A stretch of DNA of 20,000 nucleotides, taken from an uncultured virus (IMG/VR IMGVR_UViG_3300025018_000005). Taxonomy: Duplodnaviria; Heunggongvirae; Uroviricota; Caudoviricetes. Positions within the stretch are counted from its first letter, which is position 1, and each line of letters begins with the position of its first letter. The notes beneath the pieces are model-generated. The model was not told where the DNA came from and did not search any database. It saw only the letters and a list, made by a program, of their open reading frames with translations. The stretch lies in IMG/VR virus record IMGVR_UViG_3300025018_000005, one strand, 5' to 3'. Positions 613 through 17,905 of this stretch are shown one piece after another. Position numbers and translations under genes: made by a program.

Positions 613-1351
613 GGCGTTGTGTGAAGATTTACTCAATCTTAGGATTAATGAATTTTGTTTTGGAAGGAAAGAAAGCGAAGGCGGGCATGATGTTGATATG
701 GTATTCATATTGCCAAACTAAGCAGAGATACTAACGGCACCTGTAGACCATAAGAACTGGCTGCATTATAAGGGTGAGTTCGATGGGGTTAAGGTTGACT
801 ATCTCTTTGTCTTAGAGTGTGTTTTTTATGATTCGATCATCAACGGGTTAAGTCACGTACCTTACGAGTGCTTGCGTAGTGATTTCGGTGTCAATGAAGA
901 ACTTGCTGGAGAGGTAGATGACTATTTATTTACCTATCGCGCCTTAAAAAGCTATCGTGGATTATTGAGAAAGGATATAAAGCAGGCTCGTGCTTATAAA
1001 GCAAATAAATCTACTTATAAATACGAAAAGAAGGTTGGATTTATATCAGATGCAATATTACTGATCAGTAAGTATGTGAAAAATGTTGGCGTATCTGAGA
1101 CAGAGCTTAATATACTAAAAGGCGATGACTTCTTGATAAGTGCTCAAGTTATACACGACAAAATGCAGCTCGAAATGAATAAGATGTTTGATCGTGGTGA
1201 GCTACCAGAGATGTACAGTGGTTGGGAATATGAGTACGGATATTGGGGAAGCGTAGACACATCAAAAAGTCATGTTGATATTGTTGAAAAAATTGTACAT
1301 GTTTTTTCGAAAGGAGTAATAAATGAAAGCAATTATTTGTGTAGGAATTAG
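590..1351 (+). pseudogene. putative nucleotidyltransferase (Pol-beta-like) interrupted by an in-frame TAA at 719-721
   Basis: ATG 590 has RBS GGGAGG. The frame reads MQNYKIDK...FGRKESEGGHDVDMVFILPN*AEILTAP...KVDYLFV... and continues in frame into the 872..1351 ORF. The FGR..DVD and later VD motifs resemble NTase catalytic motifs. Confidence 0.55.
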
Positions 1352-2192
1352 CGGTAGCGGAAAGACTACTTGGGCGGAAGAGTATGTTCGGAATCGTGCC
1401 GACTGGATTGTTGTGTGTCGAGACGATATTCGATTTAATGGTGGGTCCAAGATCTGGAATAACTGGACATTCAACAAAAAGAATGAAGATGAAGTTACTC
1501 GCAAGTACTGGGAGTTAATTGAGTACGCTGCATTACAGGGGATGAATGTTATTCTTGCTGATACCAATTTGAATATCGGTCGTAGGATCGACATGGCTAA
1601 TAAGCTGATTGAGATGGGGTATGAAGTCGAAGAAAAGCACTTCGACGTTGATCTTCGAGACGCCATTTCACGAGACAATCAGCGATTTGGCGGTGTCGGT
1701 AGTGATGTTATTTTACGCCAGTGGTGCCAGTACAAAGGTGATGAATATGGTAAGTATGTCGCTGGTGATGGTGAAAAGGTTTATGTTGTTGACATTGATG
1801 GAACAGTAGCAGAATCACAAGGGCGAGGCTGGTACGACTGGGAGCGTGTCGGTGAAGACTTGCCTAAGACTTGGGTCATGGACATTGTGAAAGGGTTAAA
1901 CGCACAGGGTTACGGCATTGTGTTCCTGAGTGGTCGAGATGGATCTTGCTATGACATTACCAAGCAATGGCTATACGATCATTTCGGTAGCGATTTTGAG
2001 CTGTTTATGCGTGAAGCTGGCGATATGCGCAGAGACAGCATTATCAAGCGGGAATTGTTTGACACACATATCCGAAATGTGTATAACGTACAGGCTGTGA
2101 TTGATGATCGTCAGCAGGTGCTGCACGAGACTTGGGGGCCATTAGGCGTAAACGTTCTTTGTGTTGGATTGCCAGCACTTAATAATTTTTAA
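1323..2192 (+). CDS. pseT: polynucleotide 5'-kinase / 3'-phosphatase (T4 PseT-like)
   Basis: N-terminal P-loop GISGSGKTT, RDDIR, DTNLN; C-terminal HAD motifs DIDGT, LSGR, MR..GD.R.D..IK, IDDR. Confidence 0.95.
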   Translation: MKAIICVGISGSGKTTWAEEYVRNRADWIVVCRDDIRFNGGSKIWNNWTFNKKNEDEVTRKYWELIEYAALQGMNVILADTNLNIGRRIDMANKLIEMGYEVEEKHFDVDLRDAISRDNQRFGGVGSDVILRQWCQYKGDEYGKYVAGDGEKVYVVDIDGTVAESQGRGWYDWERVGEDLPKTWVMDIVKGLNAQGYGIVFLSGRDGSCYDITKQWLYDHFGSDFELFMREAGDMRRDSIIKRELFDTHIRNVYNVQAVIDDRQQVLHETWGPLGVNVLCVGLPALNNF

Positions 2193-6073: not shown

Positions 6074-6550
6074 ATGATAGGAACAGACGAGTACTACACA
6101 AGCGAAGCTAAGCCAGTAGTTGATAAGCTAAGCGTATTTGATGCGTGTGCGAATAATGAGCCTGATGTTAACGACACTGATGTCGTCGAGACTGAAAGCC
6201 AGTGGCTGCCGGAGGTTGGTGAAGAATACGAACTAAAACCCTATTGGCATAGAGTAACCATTACCACGTATGACACAAATGGCGGCGACTGCCATATTGT
6301 GTTTTGGAATCATCACGAACAAAGCTATGACTATAGGGTTAACCCTGAACAATTCCGCCCAATCAAAAAAGCCGATCAGATTGAACAAAAAAAGCGTGAT
6401 GCAATAAAAGACGAAATCAGAGGCATGCTGTCATATCCAACGTCGAACGATGAAAAGGTTGTTGATCTGGTTTATGAGTGGCATATTTCAATGGTAACCA
6501 AATCTGGCGTAGACATTAGTCCAGTGATGAAGGAGAAAGGCGATGAGTGA
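6074..6550 (+). CDS. hypothetical phage protein
   Basis: RBS GGAGGT; WLPEVGEE...QFRPIK motifs common in gammaproteobacterial phage proteins. Confidence 0.75.
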   Translation: MIGTDEYYTSEAKPVVDKLSVFDACANNEPDVNDTDVVETESQWLPEVGEEYELKPYWHRVTITTYDTNGGDCHIVFWNHHEQSYDYRVNPEQFRPIKKADQIEQKKRDAIKDEIRGMLSYPTSNDEKVVDLVYEWHISMVTKSGVDISPVMKEKGDE

Positions 6551-8802: not shown

Positions 8803-9444
8803 ATGTTGACTTATGAAGAACGGGTAAAAGCAATATTGGCTAGTAGTTTAGTTCACAAAGAAACGCTTGTGGGCGGATTACAGAGATTGGTTGATGGTGA
8901 TTTATCGCATATTGGTGATGCTATCGCGAATGGGTATGAGATTGAATTCCGTGGTTTTCGTGGCGATTTGGGGGATGGTGGTAGCCATGACTTTTCAGGG
9001 GATGTTGATCGCTATCGGGTAAAAGGGAGGATGTTTGATTTAGGTGGGATCGAGATTCCAATGCCTGCTAAGATCGAGGATGTGGAAATTGGTGAGGAGT
9101 ATTGGTTTGCGGATTTAGTGTCAAATGATGTTGAGAGTGTAATGACTACAGAAGATCAAATAGAGTTGGCAAAAAAAGAAGCAACAGAAGCTGCTATAAA
9201 GCTTGAAAACCTTAAAAACGCTTATGCGTTAGAAACATGCCCATTTAATATTGGCGACATAGTGGATATGGTCGGCTGGAAACACAAAGGCGAGAAAATA
9301 AAGATAACATCAATATGCGCGCCACGGTTTTCGTACGATTTGCGTTGGAAGGTTTTCGGTGCAATTCTAAAAGCAGATGGGACAGTCGGTAAAAACTTCG
9401 CTGATTTTTCAGAAACAGACTATAGGGTAAGTAAGGGGGAATAG
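8803..9444 (+). CDS. hypothetical protein, possibly a fusion of two genes (second half from ATG 9142)
   Basis: RBS AAGGAG; the two halves differ in composition. Confidence 0.7.
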   Translation: MLTYEERVKAILASSLVHKETLVGGLQRLVDGDLSHIGDAIANGYEIEFRGFRGDLGDGGSHDFSGDVDRYRVKGRMFDLGGIEIPMPAKIEDVEIGEEYWFADLVSNDVESVMTTEDQIELAKKEATEAAIKLENLKNAYALETCPFNIGDIVDMVGWKHKGEKIKITSICAPRFSYDLRWKVFGAILKADGTVGKNFADFSETDYRVSKGE

Positions 9445-9446
9445 TT

Positions 9447-9599
9447 ATGCGGTACAAGGTAAAAGTAACAGAAAAACATTCTGCTATTGTTTTGGTTGAT
9501 GCTGAGTCAGCGGAAGAGGCTAAGGGTAAAGCAGTAGAAGAGGCTAACTGTGAATTTGAATCGGTTTACGATTCTGAAATTCTTGACGAGGAAGAATGA
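9447..9599 (+). CDS. small protein, DpnD/PcfM-like (50 aa)
   Basis: hand translation MRYKVKVTEKHSAIVLVDAESAEEAKGKA...; RBS AAGGGGG. Confidence 0.65.
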   Translation: MRYKVKVTEKHSAIVLVDAESAEEAKGKAVEEANCEFESVYDSEILDEEE

Positions 9600-9600
9600 C

Positions 9601-9927
9601 ATGGAAAAGTATCAGCATGAAAAAGGGCAATGGATTCATACAGGGGTGCAAGCAGATGATGAGCTATCCATCGATCTGTTTACAGAGTCTGAGTACAACA
9701 ACGAAGAAAACTATCAACTGTACTTTCACTCAAACTTAGGCAGTCTAACGATTCTTGATCGAATGACTGGCTTCGGCTTTCGAGATGTTGAAACTGGCTA
9801 TCGAGATCCAGATGGTAAGTTTTGGCTTGCAAGTGGTCAGCAAGATGTTTTATTGAGTAGCGCAAAGACTATTGGAGAGGCTATTGAATGGGTGAAGACC
9901 AATGCAAATACTTGCGTTGAGTGTTAA
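9601..9927 (+). CDS. hypothetical protein
   Basis: ATG 9601 after RBS GAGGA, directly after the previous stop. Confidence 0.75.
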   Translation: MEKYQHEKGQWIHTGVQADDELSIDLFTESEYNNEENYQLYFHSNLGSLTILDRMTGFGFRDVETGYRDPDGKFWLASGQQDVLLSSAKTIGEAIEWVKTNANTCVEC

Positions 9928-9948: not shown

Positions 9949-10179
9949 ATGAATACTTCTGAAAAAGTTGCTGTATTAATTGGGGTTGTTTTTTTTATTG
10001 TTATTGTTTTTCTTTCTTTTCTTATTTGCTTTTATTACGGAGAAGAAAAAGCAATAAAAAACTACATTAAAAACAATTGCACTGAAACAAAAATAGTTGA
10101 CGCGATTGGATCGCCTATGTATGATTGTTCTGGAATTGAATTGAAAGGGTTAGATTATGAATCAAAAAGAATTGAATGA
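9949..10179 (+). CDS. single-pass membrane protein
   Basis: hydrophobic VAVLIGVVFFIVIVFLSFLICFYY segment. Confidence 0.65.
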   Translation: MNTSEKVAVLIGVVFFIVIVFLSFLICFYYGEEKAIKNYIKNNCTETKIVDAIGSPMYDCSGIELKGLDYESKRIE

Positions 10180-10621
10180 GATATTAGATCTTCACAAAAA
10201 ATGGGTGAATAATGATGGTGGTCAACGTGCTATTTTGAGTGGTGTTGATTTGAGTTATGTTGATTTTAGTAATGCTGATTTAAGTGGTGCTGATTTAAGT
10301 AATGCTAATTTTACTAATGCTAATTTGACTAATGCTAATTTTTATCGTACTAGTTTGACTAATGCTATTTTGACTAATGTTTATTTGCGGAATTGCGTAG
10401 GTAATTCAACAAATATTAAAACGTTGTTTATTTTCGATGAGTACAATATTTCATATACAAAAGATTTACTTCAAATTGGATGTGAGCTTCATAAAATAGA
10501 GGAATGGTGGTGTTTTGACAATAATATGATTCTAGAAATGGATGGAAAAGAAGCACTCAAATTTTGGCGTAAAAATAAAGAAACTATCAAAGAAATAATA
10601 AAAAATAATCCAGCTTATTAA
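10157..10621 (+). CDS. pentapeptide repeat protein (copy 1)
   Basis: A(D/N)LxX repeats; N-terminal EILDLHKKW..GQRA; C-terminal LQIGC..H...W domain. Confidence 0.92.
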   Translation: MNQKELNEILDLHKKWVNNDGGQRAILSGVDLSYVDFSNADLSGADLSNANFTNANLTNANFYRTSLTNAILTNVYLRNCVGNSTNIKTLFIFDEYNISYTKDLLQIGCELHKIEEWWCFDNNMILEMDGKEALKFWRKNKETIKEIIKNNPAY

Positions 10622-11392: not shown

Positions 11393-11485
11393 TTGACAAC
11401 GGTTTTAAATAGCTTTATTGTATAGGCGTCAATTAAGACAAAATTTAAAAGGTGAGATTATGTTTAAACTTAACGAGCAACAAAT
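11393..11485 (+). repeat. promoter + RBS + first ~9 codons cassette (copy 1)
   Basis: TTGACA-17bp-TATTGT...aggtgagatt ATG TTT AAA CTT AAC GAG CAA CAA AT; near-identical to 13442-13533. Confidence 0.9.
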
Positions 11486-11975
11486 CAAATTGGCAGAATA
11501 TTTAAAATTAATTAATGTAAATTATTCAGTGCGTTATGCTTCAAATAACGAGCATGATAACGAATGGCCTAGCGACTTGTGGCGCGCCTCTTTTGGAAAA
11601 AAATCGTTTAATTTTAATACCGGTTTAGGTCACCGTGTAACGGTATCTGGTAGAGTACAATCCGCAGGCAAAAAGTATTTTGATCTTATTGGCGGATTTA
11701 ATAGCGATGTTTTCCACGTTATTGGCGGTGTAAGTCCAACTAAAAAAATGGCGGCAATTGCGCCACAAGCGGCTGATGTTCTTTATTGTTTATTACTTGA
11801 TATGCAAGCGCACGATTATAGCTTTGAAGGTTGGTGCGGCGACCTTGGTTATGATACTGATTCACGCAAAGCAAAATTAATTTATAAAGCTTGCAATCAA
11901 ATCTATTTTGACATGGTTTCTGTTTTTACAAGTGAACAAATTGAAACATTAAACGAACTATTACAGGACTATTAA
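11460..11975 (+). CDS. conserved hypothetical early phage protein
   Basis: RBS AGGTG before ATG 11460; P..ADVLYCL..D.....SFE.WC.DLGYD.DSRKA..IY.AC motif. Confidence 0.8.
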   Translation: MFKLNEQQIKLAEYLKLINVNYSVRYASNNEHDNEWPSDLWRASFGKKSFNFNTGLGHRVTVSGRVQSAGKKYFDLIGGFNSDVFHVIGGVSPTKKMAAIAPQAADVLYCLLLDMQAHDYSFEGWCGDLGYDTDSRKAKLIYKACNQIYFDMVSVFTSEQIETLNELLQDY

Positions 11976-13000: not shown

Positions 13001-13435
13001 ATGAATCAAAAAGAATTGAATGAGATATTAGAGCTTCATAAGAAATGGCTAAATAATGATGGTGGTAAGCGTGCTGATTTTACTGATGCTAATTTGACTG
13101 GTGTCAGATTGGCTGATGCTAATTTGAGTCATGCTGATTTGACTGATGCTATTTTGACTGATGCTGATTTGACTTATGCTAATTTGACTGGTGCTAATTT
13201 AAGTAATTGTATAGGTAATTCAAAAAATATCAAAACGTTGTTTATTTTTGATGAATACAACATTTCGTATACAAAAGATTCACTTCAAATAGGGTGCCAA
13301 AATCACCGGATAGAGAATTGGTTTGGATTTAATGATAATAGAATTTTAGAAATGGATGGAAAAAAAGCGCTAAAATTCTGGCGTAAAAATAAAGAAAATA
13401 TTAGATCAATAATAAAAAATAATCCAGCTGATTAA
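13001..13435 (+). CDS. pentapeptide repeat protein (copy 2)
   Basis: paralogue of 10157..10621 with an identical start context (gggttagatt ATG AAT CAA AAA GAA TTG AAT GAG ATA TTA GA), 10 aa shorter. Confidence 0.92.
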   Translation: MNQKELNEILELHKKWLNNDGGKRADFTDANLTGVRLADANLSHADLTDAILTDADLTYANLTGANLSNCIGNSKNIKTLFIFDEYNISYTKDSLQIGCQNHRIENWFGFNDNRILEMDGKKALKFWRKNKENIRSIIKNNPAD

Positions 13436-13441
13436 TGTTGC

Positions 13442-13533
13442 TGACAACGGTTTAAATTGGGTTTATTGTATAGGCGTCAATTAAGACAAAATTTAAGAGG
13501 TGAGATTATGTTTAAACTTAACGAGCAACAAAT
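13442..13533 (+). repeat. promoter + RBS + first ~9 codons cassette (copy 2)
   Basis: near-identical to 11394-11485; -35 is CTGACA. Confidence 0.9.
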
Positions 13534-13693
13534 AAAAGTAGTTTTGGTGCCAAGCGCAAAAGAGCGTGCCGAAAAGTTCGGAGGAAAGCCAAGTGACTAT
13601 ATAAAGCTGTTTACTGCGCATGCTAAATGTCAGATTGAAAACCGTGAAAAAGAAACAATAGAGCTTATAAATAGAGTTTATAAAAAAAGGTGA
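13508..13693 (+). CDS. hypothetical protein (61 aa) sharing MFKLNEQQIK with the 11460 ORF
   Basis: RBS GAGGTG. Confidence 0.7.
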   Translation: MFKLNEQQIKVVLVPSAKERAEKFGGKPSDYIKLFTAHAKCQIENREKETIELINRVYKKR

Positions 13694-14554: not shown

Positions 14555-14579
14555 AGGGTACTAATCAGTGCCCTTTTTT
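14555..14579 (+). terminator. intrinsic terminator
   Basis: AGGGTACT-aatc-AGTGCCCT followed by a T-run. Confidence 0.8.
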
Positions 14580-14793
14580 GGTGCGTGTTATATTAGATAG
14601 ATTGAATATAAACGGATATTGATATAGTTGTAAATGATATAGTGTATCATTTTCCCCTTTTCGTAATAGGGGTAGGCTATTAAGACGATAGTTTTAGTCT
14701 ATTATGACGGAAAACACGCAAAGCCCGACCTAGATTATTTATCCTGGTTCTTGTCCGACCATTCAACTTTTTACACTTTGTTACAAATATTAT

Positions 14794-14822
14794 TTGACTC
14801 ACTTAAATAATATAGCTATAGT
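14794..14822 (+). promoter_or_regulatory. sigma70-like promoter
   Basis: TTGACT-17bp-TATAGT. Confidence 0.7.
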
Positions 14823-14856
14823 TCGTTCATCAACTCACTAGATAGGAACTACCATC

Positions 14857-14979
14857 ATGATCAAGTCACTTCTCAAGCTAGCATTGTTACCGATTAAATT
14901 AGTTTGGATTCTTGTTTCTTACAACTGGTATATGACTTACGCAATTGGCATGATCTACACTGCTTTGCAGTACTTTTGA
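14857..14979 (+). CDS. small hydrophobic membrane peptide (40 aa)
   Basis: MIKSLLKLALLPIKLVWILVSYNWYMTYAIGMIYTALQYF; has its own promoter, RBS AGGA and terminator. Confidence 0.65.
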   Translation: MIKSLLKLALLPIKLVWILVSYNWYMTYAIGMIYTALQYF

Positions 14980-14992
14980 GCCTTCCAACTAT

Positions 14993-15014
14993 AAAGCCAT
15001 TCGGGCTTTTTTTT
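14993..15014 (+). terminator. intrinsic terminator
   Basis: AAAGCC-attcg-GGCTTT followed by a T-run. Confidence 0.7.
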
Positions 15015-15308
15015 CGTCCCTAGTTCGTACTATAGTGCGAGATACTTTGCGCACTAAATATTGCGTTTAACGCAACAATAATTCACTCCCATTCTAATAA
15101 TACCAATGTAATACCATTCTACTGCCTAGCCTATACTATACCGCACTCATTCCAACCATTCACGCCAGCCTATATCGCCTCACGACGGCCTTTCTATACC
15201 TATCACGTACTAGGGTATAGCTTCAATGCATCGCAGCGCATACGGCTTTCTATGGTGTCCTAGCTTCAGCGCCATAGCACAACACCAACCAAATGTCAAG
15301 CTAGCCAA

Positions 15309-15326
15309 TGTAAACCTATCTTTACA
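15309..15326. promoter_or_regulatory. TyrR box consensus match
   Basis: TGTAAA-CCTATC-TTTACA = TGTAAA-N6-TTTACA. Confidence 0.5.
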
Positions 15327-15405
15327 GTTAGTGTCGTACGTTGTCATTATGACAGGGTATGCAAATTTGCATAGGCTATATTCATTTGTTCATGGCTATG
15401 GATTA

Positions 15406-15666
15406 CTGGTCGGATATACAGTATTTCAGCATAGACTATTCTAAGTTGTATTACTGGATAGGCATACAGTGTTCTAGCTTGGATTATTATGGGGTGGATT
15501 ATGGGTGGATATACAGTGTTCTAGCTTGGATTAGTCTTGGTTGGACTATTGGATATGTATACAGTATTGACACGTTTGTATGCCATATCTGTACACTTAA
15601 ACAGTGTATGGATATACAGTATTCAATCTCAATTATTCCAAGTTGGACTACTGTATTGATATACAG
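15406..15666. repeat. ~48-bp degenerate tandem array carrying LexA (SOS) boxes
   Basis: CTG(T/G)-N8-ACAG at 15406, 15454, 15589, 15651; degenerate copies with one mismatch to that pattern at 15501, 15549, 15604; exact 23-mer ATACAGTGTTCTAGCTTGGATTA at 15464 and 15511. Confidence 0.8.
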
Positions 15667-15672
15667 AATGGC

Positions 15673-15779
15673 TGTGGATATCCTGTGGATAACCAGGCTT
15701 TACACTGTGGATAACTTGTTAGTATCTTGTGGGTATCTTGTGGATAACTTCGTCGATCCTGTGGATATCCTGTGGATAA
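15673..15779 (-). repeat. phased array of DnaA boxes
   Basis: TGTGGATAA (reverse complement TTATCCACA) at 15684, 15706, 15739, 15771; variants at 15673, 15728, 15760; ~11-bp period. Confidence 0.88.
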
Positions 15780-15804
15780 GTACCCCGCCTACACCCCCTT
15801 TTGA

Positions 15805-15824
15805 TACTGTATGGATGTACAGGC
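15805..15824. promoter_or_regulatory. strong LexA box
   Basis: TACTGTATGGATGTACAGGC. Confidence 0.7.
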
Positions 15825-15942
15825 CTACCACTTCACTATTTTTCAAATTTTAATTCAGGTACATTAGCTTCCTCTAATATCCACCATACTAGACCCCCTA
15901 GTCCACCCCCCTTCCTACCCACTCTACCTACACTCACCAATC

Positions 15943-15971
15943 TTGACATCCTAAAATTTTTCACATAAAAT
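15943..15971 (+). promoter_or_regulatory. strong sigma70 promoter
   Basis: TTGACA-17bp-TAAAAT; RBS AAGGAG before ATG 16001. Confidence 0.8.
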
Positions 15972-16000
15972 TCACACTCAATTAACTCAAAGGAGTCGTT

Positions 16001-16243
16001 ATGAAATCACCAATTTACGAAGCAGCACTCAGAGGATCACGATGCGGATGCTCATCATGTGGCCGTGTATTTGCAAGTCTGGCAGCGTTTGACAAGCACA
16101 GACAGGTAATCCAAGACACACAGCTCAATCCAAGCCAAGATCCATACACCAAGCAATGCACAGACCCATTGACTCTTGGTATGCAAGTCAAACCGCATCC
16201 AACTGAAATCGTCTATCAGTTCCCACCAATCTCCAAAAACTAA
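16001..16243 (+). CDS. FDxHR-type putative zinc-binding phage protein
   Basis: CSSCGRVFASLAAFDKHR...C.DP..LGM. Confidence 0.75.
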   Translation: MKSPIYEAALRGSRCGCSSCGRVFASLAAFDKHRQVIQDTQLNPSQDPYTKQCTDPLTLGMQVKPHPTEIVYQFPPISKN

Positions 16244-16288: not shown

Positions 16289-16310
16289 AAAAGGGGCTAT
16301 TAAGCCCCTT
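16289..16310. terminator. terminator hairpin between convergent genes
   Basis: AAGGGGCT-atta-AGCCCCTT with an upstream A-run (T-run on the - strand). Confidence 0.7.
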
Positions 16311-16378: not shown

Positions 16379-16846
16379 CTAAAACCCTCCTAATTCGTCA
16401 ATAGAGATCACCTTGATATTCTGCCACCATGCGCATCCGTCAGCCTCAAACACTAGACCGTCGTCGTCATCAAGCTCAATCGCAGTCAACACCCCTATCA
16501 CCCATTCTTCGTCATCAAAAAACTGATACAGCTTCCCGATCTCGATCTTGAATCCAAGCTTCTCCTCCAAAGCTTCATGCTCACTCAGCACCTTCCGAAC
16601 CTTCTCACCAGTCTCAATCAAAATCAACGAGCTAACGTAACTCAATCCACGATCACCTTCTGAGTGCCAAGCGCCATAATCATCCCAACCACAAAAAAAC
16701 AACTTAGCAATCTGCAAACCTCCGTCAGCAAATCCAAACCGAACAATATCTCCATCACAATCCCAGTATGGCTTCCCAGTTTCAATCTCGTAGCCAAGGA
16801 CTTCAACACAGCCTTCGCGAACTTCACCCATTTCACCAACTCCCAT
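16379..16846 (-). CDS. acidic hypothetical protein with an internal repeat
   Basis: RBS GGAGG; EVLGYEIETGKPY and EKLGFKIEIGKLY repeat. Confidence 0.8.
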   Translation of the reverse strand: MGVGEMGEVREGCVEVLGYEIETGKPYWDCDGDIVRFGFADGGLQIAKLFFCGWDDYGAWHSEGDRGLSYVSSLILIETGEKVRKVLSEHEALEEKLGFKIEIGKLYQFFDDEEWVIGVLTAIELDDDDGLVFEADGCAWWQNIKVISIDELGGF

Positions 16847-16881: not shown

Positions 16882-16910
16882 ATCTTACCCATAAATTCAC
16901 CCTGTGTCAA
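16882..16910 (-). promoter_or_regulatory. sigma70-like promoter
   Basis: - strand TTGACA-17bp-TAAGAT upstream of 16846. Confidence 0.7.
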
Positions 16911-17905
16911 GCCCTAATTTTCACCCCCTGAAAATCCCACCAATTTCACAGCCATTTTCACCCCAAATTTTCACCTCGAAATCCACTCCATTTTTCCCAT
17001 CAAAATCTCACTCCGAACACAACCGCACTTCAAAACACTACCTTGTCATTTTGACAACCATCTTAAAATTTTATTTAAAATAAAAAAGGAGGGATCAAAG
17101 GGAAGTAATAGGGTGGGGGAAAGCTGTAGGAAACTTAACTATATTATTTATATTATTTAAATACTTTTATTATATATATATTACTATATACCCCTACTTT
17201 ACTGGGCTCGAACACTGTTTTATTTAAGGAGAAACGATTCTCCTTTTATTCGATTTTTTCTCCTTTTATTAAAATCCTGTCCACTTGGACAACTTCTGTC
17301 ACAACCGAATCTCACTCCTATATTCCAAAAACAACACATTTCAATCATTCTTATAACCATTTCATACAGTACATTTTGACGACCTAACCAGCAGATATTT
17401 CAAATCCTCCTGAAATTCTACCAAAACTAACACCAAAAACAGTACAAAAAATAACCAAATGCACCCATTTAATACCCATGAAATCCACTCTAAAACCCCT
17501 ATAAAAACACCGTTCAAATACCTACTAAAAACCACCTCAAAACCAACCAAAACACGCACCAAAAACACACTTATTTTTACCATTTAAACCACCGTTCAAA
17601 TCATCCAAAACACCAAATGAAAACACCCCAAAACCCATCAATTTTCATCCAAAAATACCACGTTCAACTAACCAAATCACCACCTAAAACACCACTGTCC
17701 CGCCGAAATCCCAGCCTGTTTTTCGGACAGCTCCATACCAATCCAACCTAATTCCAACCCAAATTCCAACCCATCCCACACCCAATACCCTGATAAAACA
17801 CCAAAAAACATCCATAAACCAAGTGTGCTATAGTGTGAATCTGCTCAGAAATCGAGCAAAAATAAAGCATAGTACCCACCAAAAACAACCGAAATAGGAC
17901 TAAAA

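Follow-up and report, generated by a model that had tools for sequence, protein, structure and literature searches.

A clustered array of LexA-type and DnaA boxes in an uncultured groundwater phage resembles the core of the T5 injection-stop region and may load host proteins

We analysed a 20,000-nt stretch of DNA (the window) from an uncultured tailed phage whose source habitat is groundwater (aquifer metagenomes; IMG/VR record IMGVR_UViG_3300025018_000005). A first-pass annotation, made from the letters alone, had picked out a non-coding region rich in apparent binding sites for host regulators and had likened it to the injection-stop region of phage T5. We found that the core of this region (positions 15400–15825) contains eight LexA-type boxes and seven DnaA boxes that are clustered beyond chance, that part of this array matches the core of the T5 region, and that the same combination of sites recurs in unrelated phages but not, beyond chance level, in cellular genomes.

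The locus between two convergent gene arms

The sequence read amounts to 47 kb of a phage of about 81 kb and combines the window with two longer assemblies: a 35.7-kb viral record (completeness rating 44%), which lies in reverse orientation and spans the window from position 1284 onward, and an 80,606-nt metagenome contig that carries a 99%-identical copy. The stretch is present in 24 runs and the contigs span the region unbroken. Contigs from four runs are almost the same (run X22 shows 5 differences over 685 nt of the region) and give no conservation signal.

The array of LexA-type and DnaA boxes is located between two gene arms that point toward each other. The + strand arm reaches leftward at least 10 kb beyond the window and rightward to 14542, where its last gene ends, and encodes YopX, Lar-like, Gad1 anti-Gabija, phosphoesterase, RNA ligase, polynucleotide kinase-phosphatase, exonuclease, MazG, Gam-like, PAPS-reductase-like and pyrimidine-dimer glycosylase proteins together with two pentapeptide proteins. 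The − strand arm consists of about 25 small genes without assigned function, from 16379 to about 25115, and to its right come the + strand genes of the large terminase, portal, scaffold, major head and adaptor proteins. The first-pass annotation had placed the cluster where the arms converge and the strand bias flips. The arms do converge, and GC skew does change from + to − (the polarity of a terminus), but at fine scale the flip lies near 14650, and an 80-residue protein is encoded on the + strand between the box array and the − arm. From about 14650 the + strand is C-rich, and the array forms a G-rich island within this C-rich domain.

Searches for relatives returned the phage itself or nothing. 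A phage collection held no DNA match, near or distant; tblastn with two neighbouring proteins found no relatives; three scans of viral contigs with flanking proteins recovered the same phage only; and a 155-residue neighbour protein had no homologue except itself among 5.8 billion proteins. No tRNAs were found, and the one Rfam match, at 15.6 bits, fell short of the 74-bit cut-off.

LexA-type and DnaA boxes cluster in the core

Four features make up the core:

15404..15668, + strand: six co-oriented 20-bp units, starting at 15404, 15452, 15499, 15547, 15602 and 15649, spaced 47–55 bp apart, with a consensus near TACTGKATGGATATACAGTA.
15587..15606, no strand assigned: a separate perfect CTGT-N8-ACAG palindrome (core 15589–15604), found by motif and palindrome scans.
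15672..15779, + strand: seven co-oriented DnaA boxes at 15673, 15684, 15706, 15728, 15739, 15760 and 15771, with an 11-bp period and 9.8 copies.
15805..15824, no strand assigned: a seventh unit with the perfect LexA-type core CTGTATGGATGTACAG, a 16-mer that is identical in three other phage families.

When TGTGGATAA was sought with at most one mismatch, the 20-kb window contained eight matches, and six of these lie at 15673–15779, all on the + strand. Four boxes are perfect (15684, 15706, 15739 and 15771), while TGTGGGTAT at 15728, the seventh box, departs from the motif at two positions. The boxes are arranged in pairs 2 nt apart (15673/15684, 15728/15739 and 15760/15771) with an extra single box at 15706, and the pair-to-pair distances are 55 and 32 bp, as compared to a gap of about 3 nt and about five helical turns in the T5-type description.

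The LexA-type motif CTGT-N8-ACAG, again with at most one mismatch, occurs 10 times in the window, including six times at 15406–15822, and its three perfect cores are at 15589, 15651 and 15807. Two further copies of the 20-bp repeat (15499 and 15547), which have a degenerate left half, bring the number of LexA-type boxes to eight. Each of the six co-oriented units is embedded in a 47–48-bp repeat that also carries a TTGGAYTA motif, and both the CTG and the CAG core are kept in the units at 15404, 15452 and 15649. The LexA-type units additionally contain weak DnaA-like cores (TGGATAT).

We compared these counts with shuffled sequence. The whole-window totals are not above chance, either for DnaA boxes (mean of 6.24 in shuffled sequence, with 8 reached in 59 of 200) or for LexA-type boxes (26 of 200 shuffles reach 10), but the clustering is. 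Across 2000 first-order Markov shuffles, four perfect DnaA boxes were never reached, nor were six DnaA boxes within 120 bp or six LexA-type boxes within 450 bp, and three perfect LexA-type boxes arose in only 6. In the 47 kb read, all four perfect DnaA boxes and all three perfect LexA cores fall inside 15589–15822. The cluster of seven DnaA and eight LexA-type boxes named in the first-pass annotation is therefore real by this measure, and the enrichment over background that it had expected holds for clustering and fails for totals.

The annotation had also described the region as containing only one open reading frame (ORF), of 40 amino acids. Mechanically called ORFs of 164, 72, 55, 48 and 45 amino acids overlap it as well. 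We considered the longest, which runs across the repeats, as a coding sequence and rejected it, because its codon score is 0.00 (as compared to 0.13–0.38 for 26 window genes), it contains no Glu and it has no Pfam match.

Likeness to the T5 injection-stop region

No mechanism has been established for the T5 injection stop in the decades since it was recognised, and a 2026 paper continues to describe it as poorly understood. In T5, the annotated injection-stop region (iss; NC_005859, 9140–10149) is untranslated and lies between convergent genes, inside the terminal repeat; the T5-type module characteristically occupies the inner edge of a long terminal repeat, about 8% of the way in from the first-entering end. 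Its perfect LexA box (9409–9428) directly abuts co-oriented DnaA-box pairs, and a second copy (6121–6228) holds a LexA box and two perfect DnaA boxes. As set out in parts of a preprint by Davison (bioRxiv 10.1101/866236), T5-like phages have eight DnaA boxes, which are paired and conserved in 25 such phages, and membrane-bound DnaA is proposed to stop T5 injection; the mapped T5 origins lie elsewhere than the T5 core, and the main text has no occurrence of LexA.

A BLAST search with the T5 core, rather than a pattern search, retrieved 534 records, and four of them were examined together with T5. In all five (T5, Vibrio VCPH, Sugarland, Eos and FZ41), a perfect LexA core abuts DnaA boxes while the AT spacers vary, and one T5-like vibriophage shares just the 50-nt core. 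A MAFFT alignment places the window's LexA box and GGATATCCTGTGGATAA opposite GGATAACCTGTGGATAA of the T5-likes. Specifically, window 15649–15692 aligns with T5 9409–9457 and with three other T5-likes, and Sugarland was confirmed by scan. The gap from LexA box to DnaA box is 6 nt in the window and 0–2 nt in the T5-likes.

Among known systems, the closest to the window core is the T5 element IRD'-spacer-IRC' (Repeat Region 3) with its inverted twin IRC-spacer-IRD (Repeat Region 2). Both phages have a long untranslated stretch with direct repeats and palindromes beside convergent genes, both have co-oriented DnaA pairs 2–3 nt apart with a LexA-type palindrome 5′ of the first pair, and the 17-mer GGATAWCCTGTGGATAA is common to the two. 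They differ in that the window carries one array of eight LexA-type and seven DnaA boxes, whereas a T5 copy has one LexA box and two pairs, and in that the LexA box abuts the first DnaA box in T5, unlike in the window. The likeness to the T5 injection stop that had been drawn from the letters alone thus holds at the sequence level.

Judged from its sequence, the phage itself is not T5-like. Its portal matches siphoviruses of Pseudomonas, Xanthomonas and others at about 25% identity, and these matches include no Salmonella phages, though the T5-likes include 274 Salmonella records, which speaks against membership of the Demerecviridae. We also considered a T5-like geometry for the first step of injection, for which the genome would have to end next to the gene of the large terminase. 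A distance of 70–80 bp separates this gene from the first gene of the − block (L113 11816–11896; about 25115–25195 in window coordinates), and we rejected the geometry on the ground that the 70-bp gap is occupied by two overlapping promoter-like sites placed back to back (TTGACA/TATTAT on one strand and the extended −10 element TGTTATAAT on the other). T5-style two-step injection in this phage lacks support.

The composite module recurs in viral DNA

We surveyed viral and cellular DNA for a LexA core followed after 0–12 nt by GGATA-N3-TGTGGATA, and clustered the loci by their 400-nt flanks. The pattern was found at 65 viral-contig loci, which form one T5-like cluster (45 instances) and seven others (11, 5, 3, 2, 2, 1 and one contig matched at both ends). 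As controls, the reversed pattern gave 0 viral loci, and replacing the LexA core with the unrelated palindrome CAGT-N8-ACTG gave 7 loci, which represent two sequence types. The search of 596 Gb of cellular genomes returned 6 loci. Two of these are T5-like DNA on one 3-kb contig; in the remaining four the spacers are GC-rich and a true DnaA pair is absent, and their number is close to the roughly 3.5 that by our own calculation chance would produce. The composite is present in cellular genomes only at chance level.

In the seven uncultured families (for example L141, L166, L170, L164, L175, L165 and L180), CTGT-N8-ACAG is followed by TGTGGATAA-CC-TGTGGATAA. The LexA 16-mer at window 15807 is identical to those of L164, L166 and L170, and the one at 15651 is identical to that of L141. 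Unlike the window array, the modules of other families consist of a single LexA box with one or two DnaA pairs beside it, and similarity between the window and other module loci is absent beyond a core of about 45 nt. At 12 non-T5 loci, examined for the 7 families, the module lies in non-coding regions of 345–1135 bp that contain private repeats and G/C runs, and the neighbouring genes encode small or large terminase, holin-endolysin or tail-fibre proteins. In four near-complete genomes of 36–46 kb and one 58%-complete record, every perfect LexA core is found in the module's non-coding region (three of the records have a single LexA box, another has two, and in the fifth a box is repeated at both ends of the contig). 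A search of five module-bearing records for a T7-type RNA polymerase was silent, as was its positive control, and is uninformative.

Two side observations concern the surroundings of these modules. In the viral record G003 (38,679 nt, 99% complete, classed as linear), the LexA/DnaA module is found at both ends (119–134 and 38658–38673), which suggests that it lies in or beside a terminal repeat. In T5 (L114), the injection-stop repeats by the LexA/DnaA core hold Fur-box-like sequences at 9653–9718 (3–4 of 19 positions mismatched), and a comparable palindrome, GAGAATGATTCTC, comes after the module in L175 and L156.

Ninety-eight viral contigs (L001–L098) share an exact copy of the window's tandem DnaA-box 21-mer. 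Among the contigs with flanks, 42 of 80 have 5–21 boxes, mostly co-oriented. At 26 of these loci, the neighbours (51 proteins) include terminase (5 loci), lysis-type proteins (4), GP88-family proteins (4), a Rep3 initiator (1) and a primase-helicase (1). By our own tally, about a quarter of the 21-mer loci lie at most 350 nt from a contig end.

Elements flanking the core

The following features surround the core:

14555..14584, + strand: two intrinsic terminator-like hairpins that close the + arm (stems 14555–14574 and 14568–14584, each followed by a T run).
14632..14652, no strand assigned: palindrome AAATGATATAGTGTATCATTT with 8-bp arms, found by palindrome scan.
14794..15009, + strand: mini-gene with a promoter-like site (14794–14822), a 40-residue hydrophobic ORF (14857–14979) and a terminator (14993–15009).
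15061..15075, no strand assigned: palindrome TTGCGTTTAACGCAA, found by palindrome scan.
15309..15373, + strand: promoter-like site at 15321–15350 (TTTACA, 18 nt, CATTAT with TG), putatively functional, that points into the array.
15825..15942, no strand assigned: blocks of + strand C runs around a short AT-rich stretch (15838–15862), with a GC skew of −0.79.
15943..16243, + strand: promoter-like site at 15943–15971 (TTGACA, 17 nt, TAAAAT; 11 of 12 positions) and the gene of an 80-residue zinc-binding protein (16001–16243).
16293..16308, no strand assigned: GC-rich hairpin (GGGGCT, loop, AGCCCC) read from the sequence, a putative terminator.

Perfect palindromes occur at 7.6 per kb in the region and 3.2 per kb elsewhere in the window, a density about 2.4-fold higher. 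Those listed in the first-pass annotation at 14632, 15061, 15309, 15342 and 15358 are present, while the one at 15025 is imperfect. The 14632 palindrome had been called Zur/Fur-like; we tried the Fur reading and discarded it, as the 5 of 19 mismatches to the Fur consensus equal those of three other window matches and represent background. Likewise, the perfect TyrR-type box that the annotation had listed is a single box and cannot be told apart from the 6-bp-arm palindromes expected by chance. Three palindromes overlap the promoter-like site at 15321–15350: TGTAAA-N6-TTTACA (15309–15326), TGTCATTATGACA (15342–15354) and TATGCAAATTTGCATA (15358–15373). Between this site and the mini-gene lies a C-rich stretch with palindromes. 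The 40-residue ORF of the mini-gene is strongly hydrophobic and has a codon score of 0.19, inside the range of the window genes, and no Pfam match; the 14794–15009 unit could provide a small membrane peptide or a small RNA. The 80-residue protein matches PF24071 (E 2.4e-7), and the hairpin at 16293–16308 separates its gene from the convergent last gene of the − arm (16379–16846).

The annotation had stated that most of the sites are not placed as operators of nearby promoters, and the cluster does not read as operators with a clear link to local promoters. The only promoter-like site that overlaps a LexA box is a weak one at 15656–15684, matching 9 of 12 positions, and the better site at 15943–15971 overlaps none.

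A proposed loading platform for LexA and DnaA

Taking the site arrangement and the T5 comparison together, we tentatively favour, with slightly less than even confidence, a mechanism whereby the 15400–15825 core acts in cis as a platform for loading host LexA and DnaA and belongs to the same module class as the T5 injection-stop core. The basic module would be a LexA operator beside tandem DnaA boxes with a CC spacer, expanded here to an array of eight and seven. LexA dimers would bind the CTGT-N8-ACAG boxes, and DnaA would oligomerise along the seven co-oriented boxes, which are one helical turn apart. As both proteins pre-exist infection, they could occupy the DNA once it is naked or accessible and build a large nucleoprotein complex at the arm junction. 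Such a complex may gate or block machines that track along DNA (RNA polymerase, replication forks or DNA translocation), and LexA cleavage and the level of DnaA-ATP would relieve or remodel it. Functionally, the core would most likely be a cis-acting, SOS- and DnaA-sensitive gate or barrier at the junction of the early-type arms. The first-pass interpretation, which had proposed a protein-loading platform serving as a decoy or as a roadblock to DNA ejection, is partly supported.

Two features suggest how the proteins might interact. Given that in other families the LexA operator adjoins or overlaps the first DnaA box, and that the window's own units contain TGGATAT cores, LexA and DnaA probably compete or cooperate; the near-overlap of the two boxes in those families (0–2 nt) argues for coupled binding rather than independent decoys. 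A host precedent exists at the E. coli uvrB promoter, where DnaA and LexA compete at overlapping boxes, and uvrB, recN and dinJ are described as repressed by both proteins (Wurihan et al. 2018, PMC6015884). The uvrB promoter resembles the window in its interleaved LexA and DnaA boxes. It differs in being a host promoter with defined transcription starts, whereas most of the window sites overlap no convincing promoter.

Several observations weigh against a LexA- and DnaA-loading platform. Three of the eight LexA-type units are without the left CTG core, and the 47–48-bp repeat structure would equally suit a phage-encoded iteron binder. The distances between LexA and DnaA boxes are 6 nt and 27 nt, as compared to 0–2 nt in other families, and the 12 non-T5 modules are mostly located between divergent blocks and not convergent arms. 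LexA boxes are not enriched near the 98 DnaA-21-mer loci (one of three perfect boxes lies near the clusters, an area of 65,112 of 388,401 nt), and consequently the LexA–DnaA pairing is lineage-restricted. In contrast to T5, no second, inverted copy of the module exists within the 47 kb of the window phage, where DnaA matches elsewhere are isolated and carry one mismatch, and a tblastn search of the same 47 kb with nine pre-early proteins of T5, namely dmp, A1, A2 and six more, returned noise (best E 0.14); A1 and A2 are required for second-step transfer. Nor has a function been proven for the T5 element. Finally, CTGT-N8-ACAG is known as the LexA motif of only some bacterial groups, so the LexA assignment presumes a host from such a group.

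The DnaA-box part of the T5 module is already in print. Its LexA half appears unreported in the literature searched, outside which lie the original T5 sequence papers and most subscription journals, and the survey of the composite in viral and cellular DNA with controls is new. Finding the core module in an unrelated groundwater phage and in seven further uncultured families points to a general phage device made from two host proteins, one of which (LexA) reports DNA damage and the other (DnaA) replication status. It is possible, though we think it rather unlikely, that LexA/DnaA composites are widespread and unrecognised phage cis-elements that act as an SOS-sensitive lock on incoming DNA, controlling its stepwise entry or the exit from the earliest programme, and that the T5 core is one instance and the present phage an amplified version with eight and seven boxes. 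If this were true, LexA, besides DnaA, would be a missing host factor in the 50-year-old problem of T5 injection stop. The platform idea lends itself to direct testing in T5 with E. coli, and even if the array proved to be a decoy or an origin, it would be an unusually clear natural array of host-factor sites.

Alternative explanations

Alternatively, the core could be a theta-type replication origin, in which the 20-bp units would be iterons for a phage initiator, the DnaA boxes would recruit host DnaA and the promoter-like site at 15321–15350 would activate the origin by transcription. We regard this as unlikely. Iteron-like direct repeats do adjoin the DnaA-box array (a DnaA cluster with at least three direct iterons), the promoter-like site points into the repeats, and the surveyed viral DnaA-box clusters include one next to a Rep3 initiator and another next to a primase-helicase. 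Iteron and DnaA-box origins include P1 oriR, pSC101 and F oriS, and these share with the window the direct repeats by a DnaA-box cluster. The window is unlike them in its lack of an AT-rich unwinding block and of an adjacent rep gene, in its convergent genes, and in a unit spacing of 47–48 bp where classical iterons are spaced by about 22 bp. There is no easily melted block across 15380–15830: 40-mers at the boxes score −45 to −55 kcal/mol, as compared to a window mean of −50.7 kcal/mol, the AT stretch at 15838–15862 scores −44.2 and the least stable 40-mer (−32.8) lies at 17141–17180. Pfam and PHROGs searches from 10 kb left to 17 kb right of the window found no initiator, helicase, primase or polymerase gene.

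The surroundings also disagree with an origin. Because the flanking arms converge, forks leaving the region would meet all transcription head-on, and the change of skew from + to − has the polarity of a terminus, an argument of modest weight because phage skew also follows transcription. The homologous T5 core is not at the mapped T5 origins, according to parts of the Davison preprint (bioRxiv 10.1101/866236). We do not lower the probability of an origin further because the four failed tests are not decisive for a phage and 47 kb of the roughly 81 kb were read.

A dual operator, by which LexA and DnaA would repress local promoters (the site at 15656–15684 and read-through from 15321–15350) and thereby tie the 80-residue gene to SOS and DnaA, is improbable. 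The site at 15656–15684 has its −35 element in a LexA box and its −10 element in a DnaA pair, and in another family DnaA boxes and a promoter-like site coincide in part, about 110 nt upstream of a small terminase gene; the double repression of uvrB, recN and dinJ would be a precedent (PMC6015884). But fifteen sites far exceed the need of one 80-residue gene, the 15656 site matches just 9 of 12 positions, and the strong promoter-like site at 15943–15971 lies 119 nt past the last box, clear of all of them.

Similarly improbable, and by a shade more so, is a decoy, by which the amplified genome would titrate LexA (SOS derepression without damage) and DnaA (block of host initiation and derepression of DnaA-controlled genes). 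The pools of LexA and DnaA are limited, and multicopy sites titrate them. Each genome has many strong sites, and the expansion of the array raises its capacity. Titration is therefore an arithmetical consequence of multicopy sites and an unavoidable side effect of genome multiplication that may be selected. E. coli datA, a DnaA-titration locus, resembles the window core as a group of DnaA boxes outside an origin onto which many DnaA molecules load, and differs from it in that it is not known to have LexA boxes. A decoy requires no fixed order, orientation or spacing, yet in the T5-likes and the seven other families the LexA box sits directly against the first of the co-oriented DnaA boxes. Moreover, with one or two LexA boxes per module-bearing genome (five records of other families), its capacity would be small.

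A phage-encoded dimeric protein that binds the 47–48-bp repeats as a partition centromere, packaging site or terminal-repeat element, with the LexA likeness incidental and only the DnaA boxes as host sites, would suit the far better conservation of the right half GGATATACAGT than of the left half, the second conserved motif (TTGGAYTA) and the module at both contig ends of another phage record, but is very unlikely given the identical LexA-type 16-mers by DnaA pairs in unrelated phages without the repeat array, the absence of ParA/ParB or any other candidate binder from the 47 kb, and the contigs that cross the region without a break.

Other observations in the gene arms

The + arm carries a Gad1-family anti-Gabija protein (E 1.9e-63; L115 5807–6811). 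Its RNA ligase gene (L115 9164–10321) adjoins the polynucleotide kinase-phosphatase gene (window 1323–2192), a tRNA-repair pair of the type used against anticodon nucleases. Two pentapeptide-repeat proteins (window 10157–10621 and 13001–13435) are paralogous with nearly identical ends, and two ORFs (window 11418–11975 and 13457–13693) have the same N-terminal 30 residues. Together, these pairs look like the result of a segmental duplication within the + arm. Inside the − arm, a second non-coding stretch (window 16900–17360) contains ATTTTCACC motifs at 16918, 16952 and 16966, which lie upstream of a − strand promoter-like site, and contigs of several runs diverge at 17141–17180.

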